From positions 102,531-166,530 of the forward strand of contig JAZNSQ010000019.1 of NCBI GenBank assembly GCA_045591265.1: a DNA stretch of 64,000 nt, read 5' to 3'. Made by a program: the position numbers and the translations under genes. Each line of letters begins with the position of its first letter. Position 1 is the first letter of the stretch. This DNA comes from Clostridia bacterium (GTDB lineage: Bacteria > Bacillota > Clostridia > UMGS1883). This document shows, piece after piece, positions 28,540-34,986 of the stretch. Under the pieces are notes generated by a model. The model did not search any database. It worked only from the letters and a program-made list of their open reading frames with translations, and was not told where the DNA came from.

Positions 28540-31500
28540 ATGGCAAGAAATAAGAAAACTATGGATGGTAACACCGCCGCAGCATATGTCTCATATGCGT
28601 TTACTGACGTTGCAGCCATCTATCCCATTACACCTTCCTCAAACATGGCAGAGGTAACGGACGAATGGGCAGCAAAAGGTAAGAAGAATATGTTCGGCAG
28701 AACAGTAAAGATTGCTGAAATGCAGTCAGAGGGCGGTGCTGCAGGTGCAGTTCACGGTTCTCTTACAGCAGGTGCGCTTACAACTACTTACACAGCGAGC
28801 CAGGGTCTCTTACTTATGATTCCGAATATGTACAAAATAGCAGGTGAGCTTTTGCCGTCAGTTATTAACGTATCTGCACGTGCGCTTGCATCTCATGCGC
28901 TTTCTATCTTCGGTGACCATCAGGACGTATATGCATGCCGTCAGACAGGTTATGCTATGCTTTGTTCTGTAAACCCGCAGGAAGCTATGGACCTCGGTGC
29001 AGTTGCTCATCTTACAACAATTAAATCAAGAGTTCCGTTCCTTCATTTCTTTGATGGTTTCAGAACTTCTCATGAATATCAGAAGGTTGAATGCTGGGAT
29101 GACGAACAGCTTAAAAAGCTCGTTGATATGGATGCTGTTGAAGCATTCCGCCGTCGCAGTCTTAACCCCGAGCATCCCGCTCAGCGCGGTACTGCACAGA
29201 ACCCTGACGTTTTCTTCCAGGCAAAAGAAGCAAACAACAAGTTCTACGATGCAGTTCCCGACCTTTGCCAGGAATATATGGACAAGGTTAACAAGGAAAT
29301 CGGTACAGATTACAAGCTCTTTAACTACTACGGTGCTGCAGATGCAGAGCATGTAATAGTTGCAATGGGCAGTGCCTGCGATACAATCCAGGAAACTGTT
29401 GACTACCTTGTAAAGAATGGTGCTAAGGTTGGTCTTATCAAGGTTAGACTTTACAGACCTTTCAGCGCAAAACATCTTATCGAAGCTATCCCTGCTTCAG
29501 TTAAGAAAATCAGCGTTCTTGACAGAACAAAAGAATGCGGTTCAATCGGTGAGCCTCTTTACCTTGACGTTGTGGCTGCTCTTCGCGACAGCAAGTTTAA
29601 GGATGTAGAAATCTTTGGCGGTCGCTATGGTCTTGGTTCAAAGGATACAACTCCTGCACAGATTATCGCAGTTTACAATAATAATGATAAGAAGAGATTT
29701 ACAGTGGGCATCAATGATGATGTTACATTTACATCTCTTGAAATTACAGAAAATCCCGACACAACTCCTGAAGGAATTACAAGCTGTAAGTTCTGGGGTC
29801 TTGGTGCTGACGGTACTGTTGGTGCTAACAAGAACTCTGTTAAGATTATCGGTGACCACACTGATATGAACGTACAGGCTTACTTTGACTATGACTCAAA
29901 GAAGTCAGGCGGTCTTACAGTATCTCACCTTCGTTTCGGTAATGCTAAAATCACAAGCACATACCTTATCAATAAGGCTGACTTCGTTGCTTGCCACAAG
30001 GCTTCATATATCAGAAAATATGATATGGTTAGCGACGTTAAGCCCGGCGGTGTATTCCTTCTTAACTGCCCCTGGACAAAGGCTGAAGAATTTGAAGCTC
30101 ACATCCCCGGTCAGGTTAAGCGCTACATCGCAGAAAACAACATCCAGTTCTATGTAATTGACGGTGTTGCTATCGGTAAGGAAATCGGTCTTGGAAACAG
30201 AATTAACACTGTTCTTCAGAGTGCATTTTTCAAGCTTGCAAACATTATCCCTGCTGAAGATGCAATTCGCTACATGAAGGATGCAGCTACAGCTTCATAC
30301 TCAAAGAAGGGTGAAGCAATCGTTAAGATGAACCATGATGCTATCGATATGGGTGCAGAAAAGGTTGTTAAGGTTGACGTTCCTGCTTCCTGGAAGGATG
30401 CAAAGGATGAAGACCTTACTTCAAAGGTTGACGGAAGCGGTAAGCTTGTTGATTACATCAATAACATTCTTAACCCCATCAACTCTTTTGCAGGCATGAA
30501 GCTCCCCGTATCAGCATTCGTTCCTTACGCTGATGGTGAAGTTCCGCTTGGTTCTTCAGCATTTGAAAAGAGAGGAATTGCAATTGACGTTCCTGAATGG
30601 AGAAGCGAAAACTGTATCCAGTGTAACTTCTGTTCTTACGTTTGTCCTCACGCTTGTATCCGTCCTGTAGTTCTTACAGAGGAAGAAGCAAAGAATGCGC
30701 CTGAAGGCATCAAGTATATCAATATGACTGGTCTTAACGGACTTTACTTTGCAATGGCAGTATCTGTGCTTGACTGTACAGGTTGCGGTTCTTGCGCAAA
30801 CGTATGTCCCGGTAAGAAGGGCGAGAAGGCTCTCTTGATGCAGCCTCTCGAAACTCAGGAAGCTCAGCAGGCAGTATTTAACTACGGCACAAAGCTTCCC
30901 TCAAAGCCTGAAGTTCTTGAGAAATTTAAGGAAACAACAGTTAAGGGCAGCCAGTTCAAGCAGCCTCTCCTTGAATTCTCTGGCGCTTGCGCAGGCTGTG
31001 GCGAAACACCTTATGCAAAACTCGTAACTCAGCTCTATGGCGATAAGATGTATATTGCAAACGCAACAGGTTGTTCTTCAATCTGGGGTGGTAGCTGTCC
31101 GTCAACTCCTTATACAACAAACGAAAAGGGCGAAGGTCCTGCTTGGGCTAACTCACTCTTTGAAGATAACGCAGAATACGGCTATGGTATGTATCTTGCA
31201 CAGAACACTCTTCGTGAAGACCTTGTAAGCAAGGTAGAAGCAGTAAGCGAAAAGGCAAATGACGCAGATAAGGCAGTAATCGCTAAATACCTTGAAACAA
31301 AAGAAGATGTAAACGCTAACAAGGTTGCAACTGCAGAGCTTGTTGAAGTTCTTGCTAAAATGAACACACCTGAAGCTGCACAAATCCTTAAGGATAAAGA
31401 ATACCTTTCAAAGAAATCCGTTTGGATTCTTGGTGGTGACGGTTGGGCATACGATATCGGCTACGGCGGTCTTGACCACGTGCTTGCAAGCGGTGACGAT

Positions 31501-32058
31501 GTAAACATCCTTGTATTCGATACAGAGGTTTACTCAAACACAGGTGGTCAGTCATCTAAATCTACTCCTACAGGTGCTATTGCGAAGTTCGCAGCAGCAG
31601 GTAAGGAAGTTAAGAAGAAAGACCTTGCAGCTATCGCTATGAGCTACGGTTATGTATACGTTGCACAGGTTGCGCAGGGTGCTGATTACAACCAGTGTAT
31701 GAAAGCATTTGTTGAAGCAGGCACATACAATGGTCCTTCAATCGTTATTGCATACGCTCCGTGTATCAACCACGGTATCAAAGGTGGTATGAGCATCGCT
31801 CAGACAGAAGAAAAGAGAGCTGTTCAGGCTGGTTACTGGCATCTCTTCCGCTTCGACCCCAGAAGAGCAGAAGAAGGACTTAATCCCTTCCAGCTTGACT
31901 CTAAAGAGCCGACAGAAAGCTATGAAGAGTTCCTTATGAACGAAGTTCGTTACAATTCTCTTGCTCGCAGTAATCCTGACAGAGCAAAGGCACTCTTTGA
32001 AAAAGCAGCACAGACTGCAAAAGCTAAATATGAGCATCTTGTAGAGCTTGCAAAATAA
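28540..32058 (+). CDS. nifJ: Pyruvate:ferredoxin (flavodoxin) oxidoreductase
   Basis: YPITPS, SEGGAAG, two 4Fe-4S motifs (CIQCNFC, CTGCGSC), GACAGCGE, GDGW, YSNTGGQ. Confidence 0.97.
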   Translation: MARNKKTMDGNTAAAYVSYAFTDVAAIYPITPSSNMAEVTDEWAAKGKKNMFGRTVKIAEMQSEGGAAGAVHGSLTAGALTTTYTASQGLLLMIPNMYKIAGELLPSVINVSARALASHALSIFGDHQDVYACRQTGYAMLCSVNPQEAMDLGAVAHLTTIKSRVPFLHFFDGFRTSHEYQKVECWDDEQLKKLVDMDAVEAFRRRSLNPEHPAQRGTAQNPDVFFQAKEANNKFYDAVPDLCQEYMDKVNKEIGTDYKLFNYYGAADAEHVIVAMGSACDTIQETVDYLVKNGAKVGLIKVRLYRPFSAKHLIEAIPASVKKISVLDRTKECGSIGEPLYLDVVAALRDSKFKDVEIFGGRYGLGSKDTTPAQIIAVYNNNDKKRFTVGINDDVTFTSLEITENPDTTPEGITSCKFWGLGADGTVGANKNSVKIIGDHTDMNVQAYFDYDSKKSGGLTVSHLRFGNAKITSTYLINKADFVACHKASYIRKYDMVSDVKPGGVFLLNCPWTKAEEFEAHIPGQVKRYIAENNIQFYVIDGVAIGKEIGLGNRINTVLQSAFFKLANIIPAEDAIRYMKDAATASYSKKGEAIVKMNHDAIDMGAEKVVKVDVPASWKDAKDEDLTSKVDGSGKLVDYINNILNPINSFAGMKLPVSAFVPYADGEVPLGSSAFEKRGIAIDVPEWRSENCIQCNFCSYVCPHACIRPVVLTEEEAKNAPEGIKYINMTGLNGLYFAMAVSVLDCTGCGSCANVCPGKKGEKALLMQPLETQEAQQAVFNYGTKLPSKPEVLEKFKETTVKGSQFKQPLLEFSGACAGCGETPYAKLVTQLYGDKMYIANATGCSSIWGGSCPSTPYTTNEKGEGPAWANSLFEDNAEYGYGMYLAQNTLREDLVSKVEAVSEKANDADKAVIAKYLETKEDVNANKVATAELVEVLAKMNTPEAAQILKDKEYLSKKSVWILGGDGWAYDIGYGGLDHVLASGDDVNILVFDTEVYSNTGGQSSKSTPTGAIAKFAAAGKEVKKKDLAAIAMSYGYVYVAQVAQGADYNQCMKAFVEAGTYNGPSIVIAYAPCINHGIKGGMSIAQTEEKRAVQAGYWHLFRFDPRRAEEGLNPFQLDSKEPTESYEEFLMNEVRYNSLARSNPDRAKALFEKAAQTAKAKYEHLVELAK

Positions 32059-32067
32059 TAGTTAACT

Positions 32068-32098
32068 AAAAACACCGCAGATTCTGCGGTGTTTTTTT
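32068..32098 (+). terminator. Intrinsic terminator after nifJ
   Basis: AAAAACACCGCAG/CTGCGGTGTTTTTTT. Confidence 0.8.
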
Positions 32099-32197
32099 GT
32101 TTTATAAAATATACAAGTGAAAATCATTGGCAACTCCTGAAATATTTTTATGTTTGTGGTAGAATAATAACATAATTAGAGAAAGGAAGTTGTTCAA

Positions 32198-33040
32198 ATG
32201 TTTAAAGCAATAACCCAGGATTTAATTGAAAATTTTAGAAATTATCTAATTGACGAAGAAAAAGCGTCTGCTACACTGGAAAAGTACATGCGCGATATCA
32301 AGGCTTTTTATGAGTGGATCGGTGAGACTGAAATTGACAAGCGTAAGGTGCTTGATTACAAGGAATACTTAACATGTAAATTTGCTCCGGCATCGGTTAA
32401 CTCGATTTTATCTTCTCTTAACAGTTTTTTTTCATATAATAACTGGCATGAGTTGAAGGTTAAAATACTTAAAATACAAAAGCAGATTTTTGCTCAAAAC
32501 GACAGGATTCTTTCAAAATCAGAGTATGAAAGATTGCTTGACTCTGCAAAAGAAAAAAGCAACCAAAGACTGTATCTGTTGATGCAGACTATATGTGCAA
32601 GCGGAATACGTGTATCAGAGCTACAGTATATAACAGTTGAAGCCATAATGCAGAGAAAGGCAACTATTAATTGCAAAGGCAAAATGAGGGTTGTGATATT
32701 ACCCAAAGATCTTTGTAAAGTTCTTTTAGAATATGCGAAAAAACAAAAAATAGCAGGTGGTTCCATTTTTGTTACCAAAAAAGGAAAGCCACTTGATAGA
32801 AGCACTATATGGAAAATGATGAAATCCCTTTGTGAAAGTGCGGGAGTTTCTGAAAAGAAAGTGTTTCCGCATAATTTAAGACATCTTTTTGCACGCACCT
32901 TTTATACCTTACAAAAGGACATCGTAAGACTTGCAGATATATTAGGCCATTCGAGCGTAAACACCACGCGTATATATACAATGGAAAGCGGTGAAGTTCA
33001 CCGCCGGCAAATTCAAAAATTAGGACTTTTAAGAATATAA
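32198..33040 (+). CDS. Tyrosine recombinase (Xer-like, probable invertase)
   Basis: 280 aa with complete catalytic set: GIRVSEL (R), KGK (K), HNLRH (HxxR), LGH, TRIY (Y). Confidence 0.93.
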   Translation: MFKAITQDLIENFRNYLIDEEKASATLEKYMRDIKAFYEWIGETEIDKRKVLDYKEYLTCKFAPASVNSILSSLNSFFSYNNWHELKVKILKIQKQIFAQNDRILSKSEYERLLDSAKEKSNQRLYLLMQTICASGIRVSELQYITVEAIMQRKATINCKGKMRVVILPKDLCKVLLEYAKKQKIAGGSIFVTKKGKPLDRSTIWKMMKSLCESAGVSEKKVFPHNLRHLFARTFYTLQKDIVRLADILGHSSVNTTRIYTMESGEVHRRQIQKLGLLRI

Positions 33041-33050
33041 AATAAATCCC

Positions 33051-33068
33051 ACATAATCGAAATTATGT
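33051..33068 (+). repeat. Left dif-like recombination site (IR-L) ACATAA-TCGAAA-TTATGT
   Basis: Exact reverse complement of 33314-33331; embedded in perfect palindrome 33044-33075. Confidence 0.85.
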
Positions 33069-33107
33069 GGGATTTTTATTTCCTGATACAGTATTAATAG
33101 CGTGGAT

Positions 33108-33136
33108 ATTATATCATCCGCAAAGGAGCTTGTCAA
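33108..33136 (-). promoter_or_regulatory. Perfect sigmaA promoter with extended -10 inside invertible segment
   Basis: minus strand TTGACA-agctcctttgcggaTGa-TATAAT (17-bp spacer), A-rich UP-like region upstream. Confidence 0.85.
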
Positions 33137-33175
33137 TGATTTTTAAGTTTTTTTTTGAATTTTGTTACTTTTCAC

Positions 33176-33250
33176 AAAAAAATACATAGCCAAACAGACC
33201 AGTTTTATAAAATGAACAAAAAACCGGTCTATAAGCTATGCAATTTTTTT
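33176..33250 (-). terminator. Long interrupted hairpin with U-tract inside invertible segment
   Basis: CATAGC/GCTATG and AGACC.GTTTT/AAAAC.GGTCT stems; two A-C mismatches become G-U on minus strand; A7/T7 flanks. Confidence 0.5.
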
Positions 33251-33313
33251 AAAAAGATATGTGTATGCCATGGGTAATAGTTCCTTTTGATGTCTGATTC
33301 ATTATGTCTTGCA

Positions 33314-33331
33314 ACATAATTTCGATTATGT
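33314..33331 (-). repeat. Right dif-like recombination site (IR-R) ACATAA-TTTCGA-TTATGT
   Basis: Reverse complement of 33051-33068; embedded in near-perfect palindrome 33305-33340. Confidence 0.85.
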
Positions 33332-33361
33332 TGTAAGACAATTTTTTAAGAACTCTTGTAA

Positions 33362-33499
33362 TCAGCAATACATAAAAAGCTATTTATATTATATTTAACT
33401 AATGTGACTGTAATGCCGTACATAAGAGGGAAGGGTATCAACAAGGCAGATATGGAATTAGTAGAATTAATGCGCGTAATTGGAAGGTCAGGTAGGTAA
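33362..33499 (+). pseudogene. Possible GNAT acetyltransferase remnant
   Basis: Frame truncated by an upstream stop reads YLTNVTVMPYIRGKGINKADME, resembling GNAT motif A. Confidence 0.3.
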
Positions 33500-33502
33500 A
33501 TA

Positions 33503-33781
33503 ATGACTACTGAAAAGCAGATAAGAATTTTATTATGGTTGTTCGTTGTGATATGCGTCATAGCTGTACTTATAATGAAGTTTATCAAATCGTTATATTT
33601 CCCATTTGTTATGGAACGTGATTTTTTGCGTATGGAAATAGGTAGAAATCGCGGAAGAGAGAAAAGAAGGTGGGAACGAGAACTCAAATGGTTTTATATG
33701 TCTCATATTCCAATTATAGGAACTTTTCTTGCTTGGGAAAGCAAGAAAAGGTATAACCGAAAAAAGCGAAGAAAAATATAA
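33503..33781 (+). CDS. Small hypothetical membrane protein (N-terminal TM, basic C-terminus)
   Basis: 92 aa ORF, AGGT RBS-like, hydrophobic residues ~9-26. Confidence 0.65.
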   Translation: MTTEKQIRILLWLFVVICVIAVLIMKFIKSLYFPFVMERDFLRMEIGRNRGREKRRWERELKWFYMSHIPIIGTFLAWESKKRYNRKKRRKI

Positions 33782-33947
33782 TTAATCATTAGGTTTTACA
33801 TAAATAGTCAACAGAGATTGAGGAGCGTTGACACTACTACCTATAGGTAGATTTATATAAGTGGTTTCTTTTAATAACACGGCTGGGAAAATATTTTTGA
33901 AATAAATTAAATGAAAGCGCTTTAGGATAATACAGAGGTGGCAGTAA

Positions 33948-34130
33948 ATGAATAAAAAGAATGATAATAAAAATTCCCCTTGCCCAAATTGTAAAACGGG
34001 GATGGAGAGCTATATTATTGACCCTGGGTCTTGCACGTGCCCGTATCTTTGCTGCCTCAAGGAAAATGAATGTGCCTACTACGTTCCTATAAGCAAGGAA
34101 AAGAACGACAAATTTTCTCCTATTATATAG
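33948..34130 (+). CDS. Small Cys-rich hypothetical protein
   Basis: 60 aa, GAGGTG RBS, CPNC...CTCPYLCC.....C; followed by terminator. Confidence 0.6.
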   Translation: MNKKNDNKNSPCPNCKTGMESYIIDPGSCTCPYLCCLKENECAYYVPISKEKNDKFSPII

Positions 34131-34132
34131 TT

Positions 34133-34182
34133 AAAAAACATCGCGGGAATTTGGGATGATACCCTTCCTGCGGTGTTTTTTT
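34133..34182. terminator. Bidirectional terminator closing the islet
   Basis: AAAAAACATCGCGGGAA/TTCCTGCGGTGTTTTTTT. Confidence 0.65.
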
Positions 34183-34627
34183 ACACTGATATAATATTTA
34201 ACTTTTTTCTTTTGGCGTGTAAAAGCGTTTTGTCTGCGCCTGTTAGGTGGTTTTTTACGTAGCATATAATAAAGTTTGAGGTTTCGACCATATACTCGTT
34301 GCATTTAATTATGAAAAGTCGTTTTGGGGTGCTTTGGGGGATTGGTGCGACGATAATTTCGTCAAAGGCATTTTCGTAAAAATCTTTGTCTGTGTTAATT
34401 TCGCTCGTAAGATAGGGGATAACAAGGATGAGCTTTACGGGGTATTTCTTTTTAAGATTCCTTATCGCGCTTGCACTTAAGCGGTCAAATGCGCCGTAAT
34501 TTCCAACGCGAAATTCGGTGACATTTTCATTTAGTATCAGGTTTTCCGCATTTTTTATTATAGACGAAAAAATCTCACCATCGTCATATATATCACTGTG
34601 ACCTGCAAAACAACAAACTTTTTTCAA
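34181..34627 (-). CDS. SLOG-superfamily (DUF1273/YspA-like) protein
   Basis: CCFAGH, G.YG.FD, LVIPY, N.YMV..S...ICYV, GA..T...A; TTG start after GAGGTG. Confidence 0.72.
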   Translation of the reverse strand: MKKVCCFAGHSDIYDDGEIFSSIIKNAENLILNENVTEFRVGNYGAFDRLSASAIRNLKKKYPVKLILVIPYLTSEINTDKDFYENAFDEIIVAPIPQSTPKRLFIIKCNEYMVETSNFIICYVKNHLTGADKTLLHAKRKKLNIISV

Positions 34628-34758
34628 AATATACACCTCTTTTGTGTGTATTATAACACATAATAATATTAAATACAAACAAATTGTTATTAATACATAA
34701 CAATTTGTTTCTGCATATGCAGAATTTGTTAGGCTATAATGCTTATGAGGTGTTTTTT

Positions 34759-34986
34759 ATGAATCCAAAAAACTTCGATATATGGCTTGGAATAGGGCTT
34801 AATATACTTCACTATAGAAAAGAGCAGGGTATGACACAGATGCAACTTGCAGAAAAAGCTGGAATAAGTAATGCTTTTATGCAAAGGATTGAAACTGCAG
34901 CATCTTCTTGCACGCTTGACACGCTTATAGATATTGCAGATGCGCTTAAAATTCCGCTAAAGAAATTATTTGAATTTAAAGATTAA
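34759..34986 (+). CDS. XRE-family HTH transcriptional regulator
   Basis: IG.NI..YRKE.GMTQ.QLAEKAGIS....RIE. Confidence 0.88.
   Translation: MNPKNFDIWLGIGLNILHYRKEQGMTQMQLAEKAGISNAFMQRIETAASSCTLDTLIDIADALKIPLKKLFEFKD

Follow-up and report, generated by a model that had tools for sequence, protein, structure and literature searches.

The window, a stretch of 64,000 nucleotides from a Clostridia bacterium, very probably contains a self-contained invertible-promoter switch (inverton), an explanation that we hold with high confidence as a whole, including a layer of hairpins built into its recombination sites. It is carried by the anatomy of the locus, its conservation among relatives, the presence of both orientations in homologous loci, the co-variation of cores and arm pairs, and a recombinase with its catalytic motif set intact. 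We infer that this recombinase catalyses the flip and that promoter and hairpins work as predicted. The compact cassette, defined from sequence alone as recombinase, site, promoter and site, is organized as follows:

32068 to 32096, plus strand: hairpin resembling a terminator, downstream of the preceding 1172-aa gene (13 pairs followed by a T run; -18.9 kcal/mol, z -6.4)
32198 to 33040, plus strand: Xer-like tyrosine recombinase of 280 aa (Pfam Phage_integrase, structure matches, catalytic motifs)
33044 to 33075, no strand: putative left recombination site, CCCACATAA-type inverted half-sites around the core TCGAAA (33057-33062), 14-pair palindrome
33057 to 33325, no strand: predicted invertible segment, core to core, 269 bp, with 245 nt between the exact 18-nt repeats
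33108 to 33136, minus strand: consensus sigma-70 promoter TTGACA-17-TGnTATAAT (12/12 plus TG), directed at the recombinase 3' end
33305 to 33340, no strand: putative right recombination site, GCAACATAA-type half-sites around the core TTTCGA (33320-33325), 16-pair palindrome with a T run on the plus strand
33503 to 33781, plus strand: small membrane protein of 92 aa with a basic tail (ORF), the first gene in reach of the flipped promoter
33948 to 34130, plus strand: Cys-rich protein of 60 aa (ORF), the second putative cargo gene
34130 to 34182, plus strand: strong terminator-like hairpin closing the putative two-gene cargo unit (-28.2 kcal/mol, z -7.2, computed over 34125-34185)

The recombinase, repeats and promoter that an earlier note on this DNA had described were all found at the positions it gave. 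The two copies of the 18-nt inverted repeat (33051-33068 and 33314-33331) are 100% complementary, and the gap between the recombinase stop, whose last base is 33040, and the first of them is 10 nt, as had been claimed. The minus-strand promoter read from 33136 to 33108, TTGACA-17-TATAAT with a TG extension, agrees with the consensus at 12 of 12 positions and is the sole match of this quality among 17 promoter-like matches in 31900-34700. The remark that this promoter has no gene to drive is likewise borne out, the minus strand being free of ORFs of at least 40 aa from the promoter to the recombinase stop. Because the overlap regions TCGAAA and TTTCGA are asymmetric and inverted, strand exchange between them would flip the 269-bp segment rather than delete it. 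The hairpin at 32068-32096 marks the left boundary of the switch module, and the gene after the cargo unit is convergent (34181-34678, minus strand). An Rfam scan over 32000-34800 gave no match reaching the gathering score.

The 280-aa protein, which we presume to be the invertase of the segment, matches Pfam Phage_integrase with 99 bits and carries N-terminal SAM-like domains. Its best NCBIfam matches are XerA (152.7 bits, cut-off 220), XerD (136.4, cut-off 329.6) and XerC (120.1, cut-off 335.15), every one under its cut-off, with XerS at 68.5 against 267; the FimB/FimE-type invertase models NF007370 and NF007371 yielded 33.6 and 27 bits (cut-offs 221 and 222). The nearest solved structures are those of XerA (5hxy, E 1.9e-22) and XerD (1a0p). 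The motifs bearing the catalytic residues are intact, namely GIR at 136-138, HNLR at 225-228, GH at 250-251 and IY at 259-260. Elsewhere in the genome, there are 14 further Phage_integrase matches, two of which score above the switch recombinase.

Each recombination site consists of two inverted half-sites around a 6-bp centre, as in dif. When up to two mismatches were allowed, the 18-mer was found at only two positions in the 1.96-Mb genome, both at the switch, and the reversed control pattern was found at none; the looser pattern CATAA-N6-TTATG occurred 14 times, compared to 5.3 expected from base composition. We collected 122 loci that encode a recombinase homologue at 58-100% identity. A site of the CATAA-N6-TTATG form lies at most 150 nt past the homologue's stop in 113 of them, and in 99 of the 122 a site at most 150 nt after the stop is accompanied by a downstream partner with the exact reverse-complement core. 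The remaining loci have the partner upstream of the gene (2), run off the contig (7), carry a truncated gene (6), have a single site (5) or are without a site by the strict pattern (3). Across the family, 22 different cores were observed, none of them palindromic, and in all 99 loci a change in one core is matched in its partner. The variation falls mostly in the central 4 nt of the 6-nt core, 21 of the 22 core types having the form T-NNNN-A; the flanking CATAA and TTATG are invariant by construction, since the loci were classified with that pattern. Of 401 genomes sampled from the class, 91 encode homologues, with up to 6 modules per genome, and the architecture is kept in 18 of 20 more distant loci from other families in this class (48-68% identity). 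Going by these homologues, the switch belongs to a very large family in Clostridia and is no one-off.

Given its relatives, the recombinase could instead serve a Xer/dif dimer-resolution module, as does xerS beside difSL, or the site could be the attachment site of an integrating element, in either case with no inversion switch. The best-matching families of the enzyme, XerA, XerD and XerC, would suit such a role, as would the layout of the site: in the passages of PMC5357621 that deal with it, dif has two half-sites around a 6-bp central region and the XerS gene directly adjoins its site. However, all Xer family scores are far under their cut-offs, and the other Phage_integrase matches in the genome include two stronger ones. 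Moreover, the sites come as inverted pairs 212-400 nt apart that flank a promoter, and the module is present in multiple copies in a single genome. Dimer resolution and element attachment were rejected on the paired inverted sites around a promoter, the multiple copies and the low Xer scores, and together they retain hardly any probability.

As the earlier note had proposed, homologous loci were compared for the paired sites and the internal promoter; both are kept, and both orientations are present. In 92 non-redundant loci, the inner segment measures 212-400 nt (median 247), and a sequence pattern for a promoter with at least 10 of 12 matches occurs no more than 90 nt from a segment end in 91, lying 25-44 nt away in 79 of these 91. 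The promoter points toward the recombinase in 50 loci and toward the cargo in 41, with one locus N-masked; by a stricter promoter pattern, the same 92 loci comprise 45 recombinase-facing, 33 cargo-facing and 14 without a promoter. The split of 50 versus 41, along with the 99 of 122 loci that have a reverse-complement-core pair, supports the ON/OFF switch that the earlier note had proposed. Since the loci are related, these counts, those given below and the Mann-Whitney p-values computed alongside them overstate independence.

Alignments of individual segments likewise capture both states. The window's segment aligns over 1-247 to that of locus L004 in the same orientation (78%), and over its full length in reverse to L005 and L006 (74-75%), where the right flank is collinear and where the inverted left junction that the earlier note had written out is present. 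Within their flanks, L005 and L006 show no synteny to the window, and we take both to be homologous modules, not strict orthologues. A precise flip was seen between two MAG loci, L087 and L094, whose flanks are collinear at 97.4% and 96.2%, with the 280-nt segment reversed at 97.5%. Within a single genome, G069, three paralogous cassettes have collinear recombinase genes (91-92%), with the segment of one running opposite to those of the others (90-93%). Mapping orientation onto the recombinase phylogeny of 90 loci requires at least 24 changes, compared to 30.0 +/- 2.5 with shuffled labels, which indicates that flips are frequent on evolutionary timescales.

In the mechanism that we propose, the recombinase would bind four half-sites of the form nnCCACATAA or nGCAACATAA, which would compose two dif-like sites whose arms are inverted and flank a 6-bp overlap region; the predicted promoter sits about 40 nt from one segment end. 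As assembled, the promoter aims at the recombinase 3' end and would run into the left-site hairpin, so that the cargo would be OFF. After a flip, it should lie at 33246-33274 on the plus strand, and in this ON state transcription would cross the right site into the 92-aa gene and then the 60-aa gene. The same rearrangement is predicted to alter the hairpins. In the OFF state, the half-sites would be matched such that both sites form long palindromic terminators, the left one halting the promoter's own transcript before it enters the recombinase gene in antisense and the right one keeping read-through out of the cargo. Each site would become a hybrid of two arm types in the ON state, leaving a weak A/T stem of 7-8 pairs.

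Several observations bear on this hairpin layer. Centred on each site is a longer palindrome (33044-33075 and 33305-33340) with a T-rich run after it, and for this reason both score as intrinsic terminators; the left site as assembled looks terminator-like on both strands. The hairpin energies in the window as assembled are -17.3 kcal/mol (z -5.7) on the left and -19.8 kcal/mol (z -6.2) on the right, as compared to -5.9 and -4.9 kcal/mol in its computed flipped form. The family behaves alike, with mean energies of -12.0/-16.2 where the promoter points toward the recombinase versus -6.4/-8.0 where it points toward the cargo. Beyond CATAA, the contiguous stretch shared by two arms measures 4.4 nt for OL-IP and 3.1-4.3 nt for ID-OR in either state, whereas it measures 1.5-2.5 nt for the remaining four pairings. 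On the promoter's strand, the left site has a stem of at least 10 pairs with a T-rich tail in 31 of 50 recombinase-facing loci and in 10 of 41 cargo-facing ones. On the plus strand, a terminator is predicted at the left site in only 5 of the 50 recombinase-facing loci and at the right site in 19 of the 50, and a 'double lock' is thus not universal. Taken from these predicted structures, the site hairpins would terminate transcription.

Both sites being strong hairpins followed by T-rich runs, they might also be read as plain Rho-independent terminators that serve the recombinase gene and an unannotated transcript, respectively, share a loop-proximal stem by chance and undergo no recombination. 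Yet exact reverse-complement cores maintained through 22 variants in 99 of 122 loci are not expected by chance, and ordinary terminators would not border a segment that is seen reversed between 97%-identical loci. We consider this reading extremely improbable and rejected it, as it is contradicted by the alignments in both orientations, the 99 core pairs, the paralogues of G069 and the L087/L094 pair.

Promoter inversion as a means of phase variation has been studied extensively in Bacteroides and E. coli; within Clostridia, the detailed work comes mostly from C. difficile. In Mycoplasma, the Xer-like recombinase Xer1 (vpma/vsp) lies beside an inverted locus, where it controls surface proteins by shuffling one promoter among several surface-protein genes via many sites; by description, the present two-site ON/OFF cassette differs from such many-site shuffling. 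A related layout is that of E. coli fim (FimB/FimE, fimS), in which, as the passages on fim in PMC2784873 describe, a tyrosine recombinase sits beside an invertible segment of about 300 bp with the promoter for surface-structure genes. Similar to fim, the recombinase is adjacent here and ON/OFF would be set by promoter orientation; unlike fim, the enzyme is not of the FimB/E type, there is one enzyme instead of two, and the sites are dif-like with long palindromic arms. For C. difficile cwpV, the same source, where it treats this locus, describes a 195-bp invertible segment upstream of a cell-wall protein gene, a recombinase RecV of the XerC/XerD family, and an intrinsic terminator that forms at the junction of repeat and segment in the OFF orientation only (PMC2784873). 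The window shares with cwpV the Clostridia host, a XerC/XerD-like recombinase and a short segment, and may resemble it in an orientation-dependent terminator, going by the predicted hairpins. In cwpV as described there, the segment does not contain the promoter and recV sits at another locus, whereas here the promoter is inside and the recombinase adjacent; furthermore, the predicted state-dependent hairpins are built here from the recombination half-sites themselves, at both borders. With the single-recombinase systems XerA, XerH and XerS, the switch has in common XerA as best family and structure match and the inverted half-sites around a 6-bp centre. It departs from them in having two inverted sites per module versus one per replicon, in being multi-copy and in its presumed outcome, promoter inversion instead of dimer resolution.

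The earlier note did not recognise the switch as a described system. A full-text literature search with short strings from both sites returned unrelated papers only, and the main-text literature searched on invertons, Xer-like inversion and invertible promoters in Clostridia yielded no description of site or cassette, bar one possible exception. This exception is inverton group 139 of the hCom2 gut survey, 32 of whose 33 invertons are from Clostridia, nearly all of them near a tyrosine-type recombinase/integrase ('invertase group 35') oriented beyond the inverton's control (PMC11892184). Of the two examples given there, one has 13-nt repeats 228 nt apart and the other 25-nt repeats 206 nt apart, and the orientation ratio of both changed in culture (PMC11892184). 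Host class, sizes and adjacent recombinase are, by description, compatible with the present family, and this PhaseFinder-type survey has probably already detected the same class, a large Clostridia family, as group 139. The passages on group 139 do not describe the dif-like layout, the arm pairing and hairpins, the core variants, the cargo or the distribution found here (PMC11892184).

Taken jointly, the features of the family can be read as a portable, single-protein, Xer-derived switch with four half-sites in two matched pairs, whose sites would be state-dependent terminators dissolved by the flip, whose 22 cores would make mutually orthogonal switches, and whose copies would stand before surface-protein operons in about a quarter of sampled Clostridia genomes. 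This combined reading is tentative, and we doubt it slightly more than we believe it. If the arm pairing is true, one DNA element would be both recombination site and conditional terminator. The switch may further make surface variation accessible to study in those gut and rumen Clostridia that are uncultured, and a single 280-aa recombinase with many natural cores could serve as a genetic tool in anaerobic Firmicutes.

The usual cargo of the family consists of a TetR-like regulator together with a small membrane protein and with surface proteins that are SLH or adhesin-like, and cassettes also precede a GGDEF protein and cell-wall hydrolases. The two small genes named as cargo by the earlier note do lie downstream of the switch, but they form a reduced version of this usual set, comprising the small membrane protein and the 60-aa Cys-rich protein only. 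For the 92-aa protein, tblastn revealed homologues downstream of the switch in 38 other loci. For the 60-aa protein, a single homologue was detected, encoded in L091 at the equivalent place within a homologous operon (46% across 43 aa), and its sole family match is a sub-threshold zinc-ribbon; neither protein has an above-threshold match in Pfam, NCBIfam or PHROG. Two genes of L045, the nearest syntenic relative, namely the TetR-like one and that for a large secreted surface protein, have no counterpart anywhere in the genome, and by this loss of cargo the copy could be decaying.

The family might accordingly flip while this particular copy no longer does so, or does so without consequence, its cargo having decayed to two small ORFs. 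Besides the genes missing relative to L045, such a locked copy would fit the fact that no orientation-mixed contigs were seen, in material that consists of contigs only. On the other hand, the recombinase is untruncated and retains its catalytic motifs, the two copies of the 18-nt repeat match perfectly, the promoter matches the consensus at every position, and the 92-aa gene is intact and belongs to the protein family conserved in those 38 other loci. We regard a fossil switch as unlikely, and the inverton in the window would continue to switch.

Regarding the organism's own population, a second assembly of the same species was not found in a metagenome scan (12 loci, best 83%) or a genome-contig scan (best 87%). 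Logan contigs with matching sequence came from 6 sets, each with a share of at most 0.50 and none of them RNA. In sets X1 to X4, which are assembled contigs and not reads, no strand-change joint is listed. Two short skip joints in X3, with sides of 20 and 23 nt, probably come from relatives. The contigs of X2 and X3 leave 33138-33254 without cover, and in X1 the left site is interrupted by a contig break, the first contig reaching 33063 and the following one starting at 33051. Promoter inversion offers a possible explanation for assembly breaks at switch loci.

The elements of the putative switch were all recovered as an earlier note had described them: a tyrosine recombinase gene, paired 18-mers and a minus-strand promoter between them. 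The features of the locus and its surroundings are as follows.

28540-32058, plus strand: 1172-aa ORF just upstream of the switch
32198-33040, plus strand: tyrosine recombinase, 280 aa (843-nt ORF)
33044-33075: left palindrome of 14 pairs, centred on the left 18-mer, then a T-rich run
33051-33068: left 18-mer, starting 10 nt past the recombinase stop
33136..33108, minus strand: predicted promoter TTGACA-17-TATAAT (12/12, with TG extension), between the 18-mer copies
33305-33340: right palindrome of 16 pairs, centred on the right 18-mer, then a T-rich run
33314-33331: right 18-mer, exact reverse complement of the left, with 245 nt between the copies
~34130-34182: strong hairpin ending the cargo unit (folding prediction)

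A search allowing up to 2 mismatches found the 18-mer nowhere else in the 1.96-Mb genome. In a Pfam profile search, the recombinase matched Phage_integrase (99 bits) and, at its N-terminus, SAM-like domains. Alignments and motif positions identify R138, H225, R228, H251 and Y260 as the usual catalytic residues, accompanied by the lysine in a CKGKMR hairpin. The nearest solved structures are XerA (5hxy, E 1.9e-22; 4a8e) and XerD (1a0p). Among curated family models XerA, XerD and XerC ranked best, each far under its cut-off, and FimB/E-type invertase models scored lower; by score, it qualifies for none of the curated Xer or invertase families that were tested. Because the genome contains 14 further Phage_integrase matches, 2 of them stronger, we regard this protein as an extra recombinase and not as the sole Xer candidate.

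Since each 18-mer sits in a palindrome followed by a T-rich run, both sites can also be called terminator-like, and their folding energies (-17.3 and -19.8 kcal/mol) were reached by 0 of 200 shuffles. These hairpins raise the obvious rival explanation that the two sites are simply two terminators. Evidence bearing on this point came from 122 loci with a recombinase homologue (58-100% identity), drawn from the organism's own GTDB family (a match in 39 of 64 genomes, at most 4 per genome), from metagenome contigs (12 loci) and from species-representative genomes, taking the best 80 of 118 relatives, which are uncultured Clostridia MAGs, from animal guts by title. Classified by the pattern CATAA-N6-TTATG, 99 of the 122 loci have a site within 150 nt past the stop and a downstream partner whose core, the central 6 nt, is exactly reverse-complementary. 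In 2 others the partner lies on the upstream side of the recombinase gene, 7 meet a contig end within 450 nt, 6 carry a recombinase that is truncated, 5 show one site only and 3 have no site of this strict pattern. Dropping 7 duplicates from the paired-site loci left 92, with 22 core types, none palindromic, and an inner segment of 212-400 nt (median 247). Because first core and partner core vary together in 99 of 99 loci, the pairs bear the signature of a tyrosine-recombinase overlap region, not of a terminator, which argues against the two-terminator explanation.

An invertible segment was further indicated by the relatives, which display it in both orientations. Under the strict promoter pattern, the promoter faced the recombinase in 45 of the 92 loci and the cargo in 33, with none found in 14; a looser rule (score at least 10/12, at most 90 nt from a segment end) gave 50 and 41, with 1 locus N-masked, counts that are not independent trials given that the loci are mutually related. 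In 79 of 91 loci, 25-44 nt separate the end of the -10 element from the site closest to it. Locus L004 can be aligned with all of the window's 247-nt inner segment in the same orientation (78%), and L005 and L006 with the segment reversed (74-75%) and the sequence to its right still collinear; the flanks of the latter two showed no synteny with the window. Both contain the flipped left junction that the earlier note had predicted and written out. Between the MAG loci L087 and L094, the recombinase (97.4%) and the downstream sequence (96.2%) are collinear, with a 280-nt segment reversed at 97.5%. Likewise, genome G069 has three paralogous cassettes whose recombinase genes are collinear at 91-92%, one of them with its segment inverted with respect to those of the remaining pair (90-93%). 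Mapped on a FastTree tree of 90 recombinases, orientation requires at least 24 changes, compared with 30.0 +/- 2.5 for shuffled labels (6 of 500 shuffles need as few), so that orientation is almost uncoupled from phylogeny. The note's reading as an invertible switch therefore holds, on the strength of homologous segments in both orientations and co-varying paired cores, and its proposed check among homologues returned paired sites and promoters pointing either way. As judged from sequence, the window locus is a real, well-formed invertible promoter switch, in which the recombinase is the presumed invertase and the promoter a predicted one.

We next compared the site arms. The outer arms, which stay fixed, are here called OL and OR; of the inner arms, IP is the one beside the promoter and ID the remaining one. 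Most OL and IP arms belong to the CCACATAA type, and ID and OR tend toward GCAACATAA. In either present orientation, OL and IP match over 4.4 contiguous nt beyond CATAA and ID and OR over 3.1-4.3, the other four pairings being weaker (1.5-2.5 nt). These two pairs are the ones that meet when the promoter points toward the recombinase. In that state, site folding energies in the family average -12.0 and -16.2 kcal/mol, versus -6.4 and -8.0 in the other, and the window sites go from -17.3 and -19.8 kcal/mol as assembled to -5.9 and -4.9 in a script-computed flipped form. If a stem of 10 or more pairs with a T-rich tail is taken as terminator-like, the most consistent predicted terminator in the family is the left site, read along the strand of the promoter; it qualifies in 31 of 50 recombinase-facing versus 10 of 41 cargo-facing loci. 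On the plus strand, the right site qualifies in 19 of 50 versus 1 of 41, and the left site in only 5 of 50. We infer a hairpin layer in which the sites would double as state-dependent terminators. In the OFF state, the short promoter transcript would end before it enters the recombinase gene in antisense direction, with the cargo shielded from read-through; a flip would turn the promoter and weaken both hairpins.

Across an even sample of Clostridia, recombinase homologues (E <= 1e-40) occur in 91 of 401 genomes, which represent 59 of 218 genera, and a single genome can hold as many as 6 copies. Among 20 fetched distant loci (48-68% identity), 18 have, past the stop, a site of this form plus an inverted partner, with 116-294 nt between repeats; in one of the remaining 2, the contig ends 549 nt past the stop.

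Past the right site, clustering and Pfam identified a TetR-family regulator of ~187 aa as the most frequent cargo (64 of the 92 loci). A small membrane protein of ~87 aa is cargo in 36 of 92 by clustering, and tblastn found homologues of the window's 92-aa protein in 38 other loci. Also frequent is either an SLH-domain protein (24/92) or a large secreted protein with hints of GLUG or pectate-lyase-like adhesive domains (23/92). Among the other cargoes are a Listeria-Bacteroides-repeat protein, a GH25-CHAP-dockerin protein and an SPFH/zinc-ribbon protein, as well as two pairs: an acyltransferase ahead of an AMP-binding enzyme, and a YpsA-like protein ahead of a GGDEF protein. The last pair is seen in L079 (4128-6839; YpsA-family gene, 32.4 bits); in the window, the gene convergent on the cargo unit (34181-34678, minus strand) has a weak, below-cut-off YpsA/SLOG-family match (19.3 bits).

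The nearest relative, at 87% identity, is L045 (another label for locus L004), and its possession of the same large upstream gene makes it syntenic with the window: the last 350 aa of the 1172-aa ORF, which by eye looks like a pyruvate:ferredoxin oxidoreductase, are 96% identical to its counterpart. Between that gene and the recombinase, L045 carries two minus-strand ORFs (1622-2777; 239 and 148 aa) that had no Pfam match; the window has only ~140 nt there (32097-32197). L045 cargo consists of a TetR-like gene, a small membrane protein and an ORF of 365+ aa. Of these, the window has just the small membrane protein; its only other cargo is a 60-aa Cys-rich protein, whose one homologue occupies the same operon position in L091. 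Homologues of the L045 TetR-like and large proteins were found nowhere in the window organism's genome, so the switch there would control a reduced unit.

The switch is a variant of already known inversion logic and not a new kind. It follows the logic of the fim switch and the Bacteroides promoter invertons, and single-recombinase Xer systems come closest to its protein and site; PMC5357621 describes the dif layout, with xerS adjoining its site. The C. difficile cwpV switch is a precedent for an orientation-dependent terminator, but its promoter lies outside the segment and its recombinase is encoded elsewhere (PMC2784873). According to a defined gut community survey (PMC11892184), 'inverton group 139' has 32 of 33 invertons from Clostridia, nearly all with a tyrosine recombinase nearby, and two examples, one with 13-nt repeats 228 nt apart and one with 25-nt repeats 206 nt apart, both shifted orientation ratio during culture. 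Judged by this description, the group is probably of the same class as the window switch. Text searches of the literature returned no description of the site, arm pairing, core variants or cargo found here. Interest lies in the size and uniformity of this switch family in Clostridia, in the portability of the cassette and in recombination sites possibly doubling as conditional terminators.

In L017 and L024 (genomes G042 and G036), the partner site precedes the recombinase start by ~84 nt and the stop by 924 nt, and the other site follows 126-139 nt past the stop, with the promoter between the stop and that second site; by this arrangement, the whole recombinase gene would flip along with the promoter. 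An extra tandem site copy, 32-35 nt from one site and on either side of the segment, occurs in 24 of 92 loci (for example L004, at +272 and +305 past the stop, and L025, at +14 and +47); a promoter ~70 nt rather than ~40 nt from the outermost site goes with an extra copy at that end. Such copies could offer alternative points of crossover or serve as accessory sites for binding. The G069 cassettes (L132, L133 and L134, on three contigs) are 90-93% identical and share one core; as their similarity stops just beyond the right site, the cassette has been copied in front of different genes, and with identical cores on separate contigs, large rearrangements between the copies could also arise. In sequencing run X1, two successive Logan contigs meet inside the left site, the first ending at 33063 and the second beginning at 33051, and the fetched loci L018, L028 and L013 also end at or just past a site; metagenome assemblies may regularly break at loci of this family.
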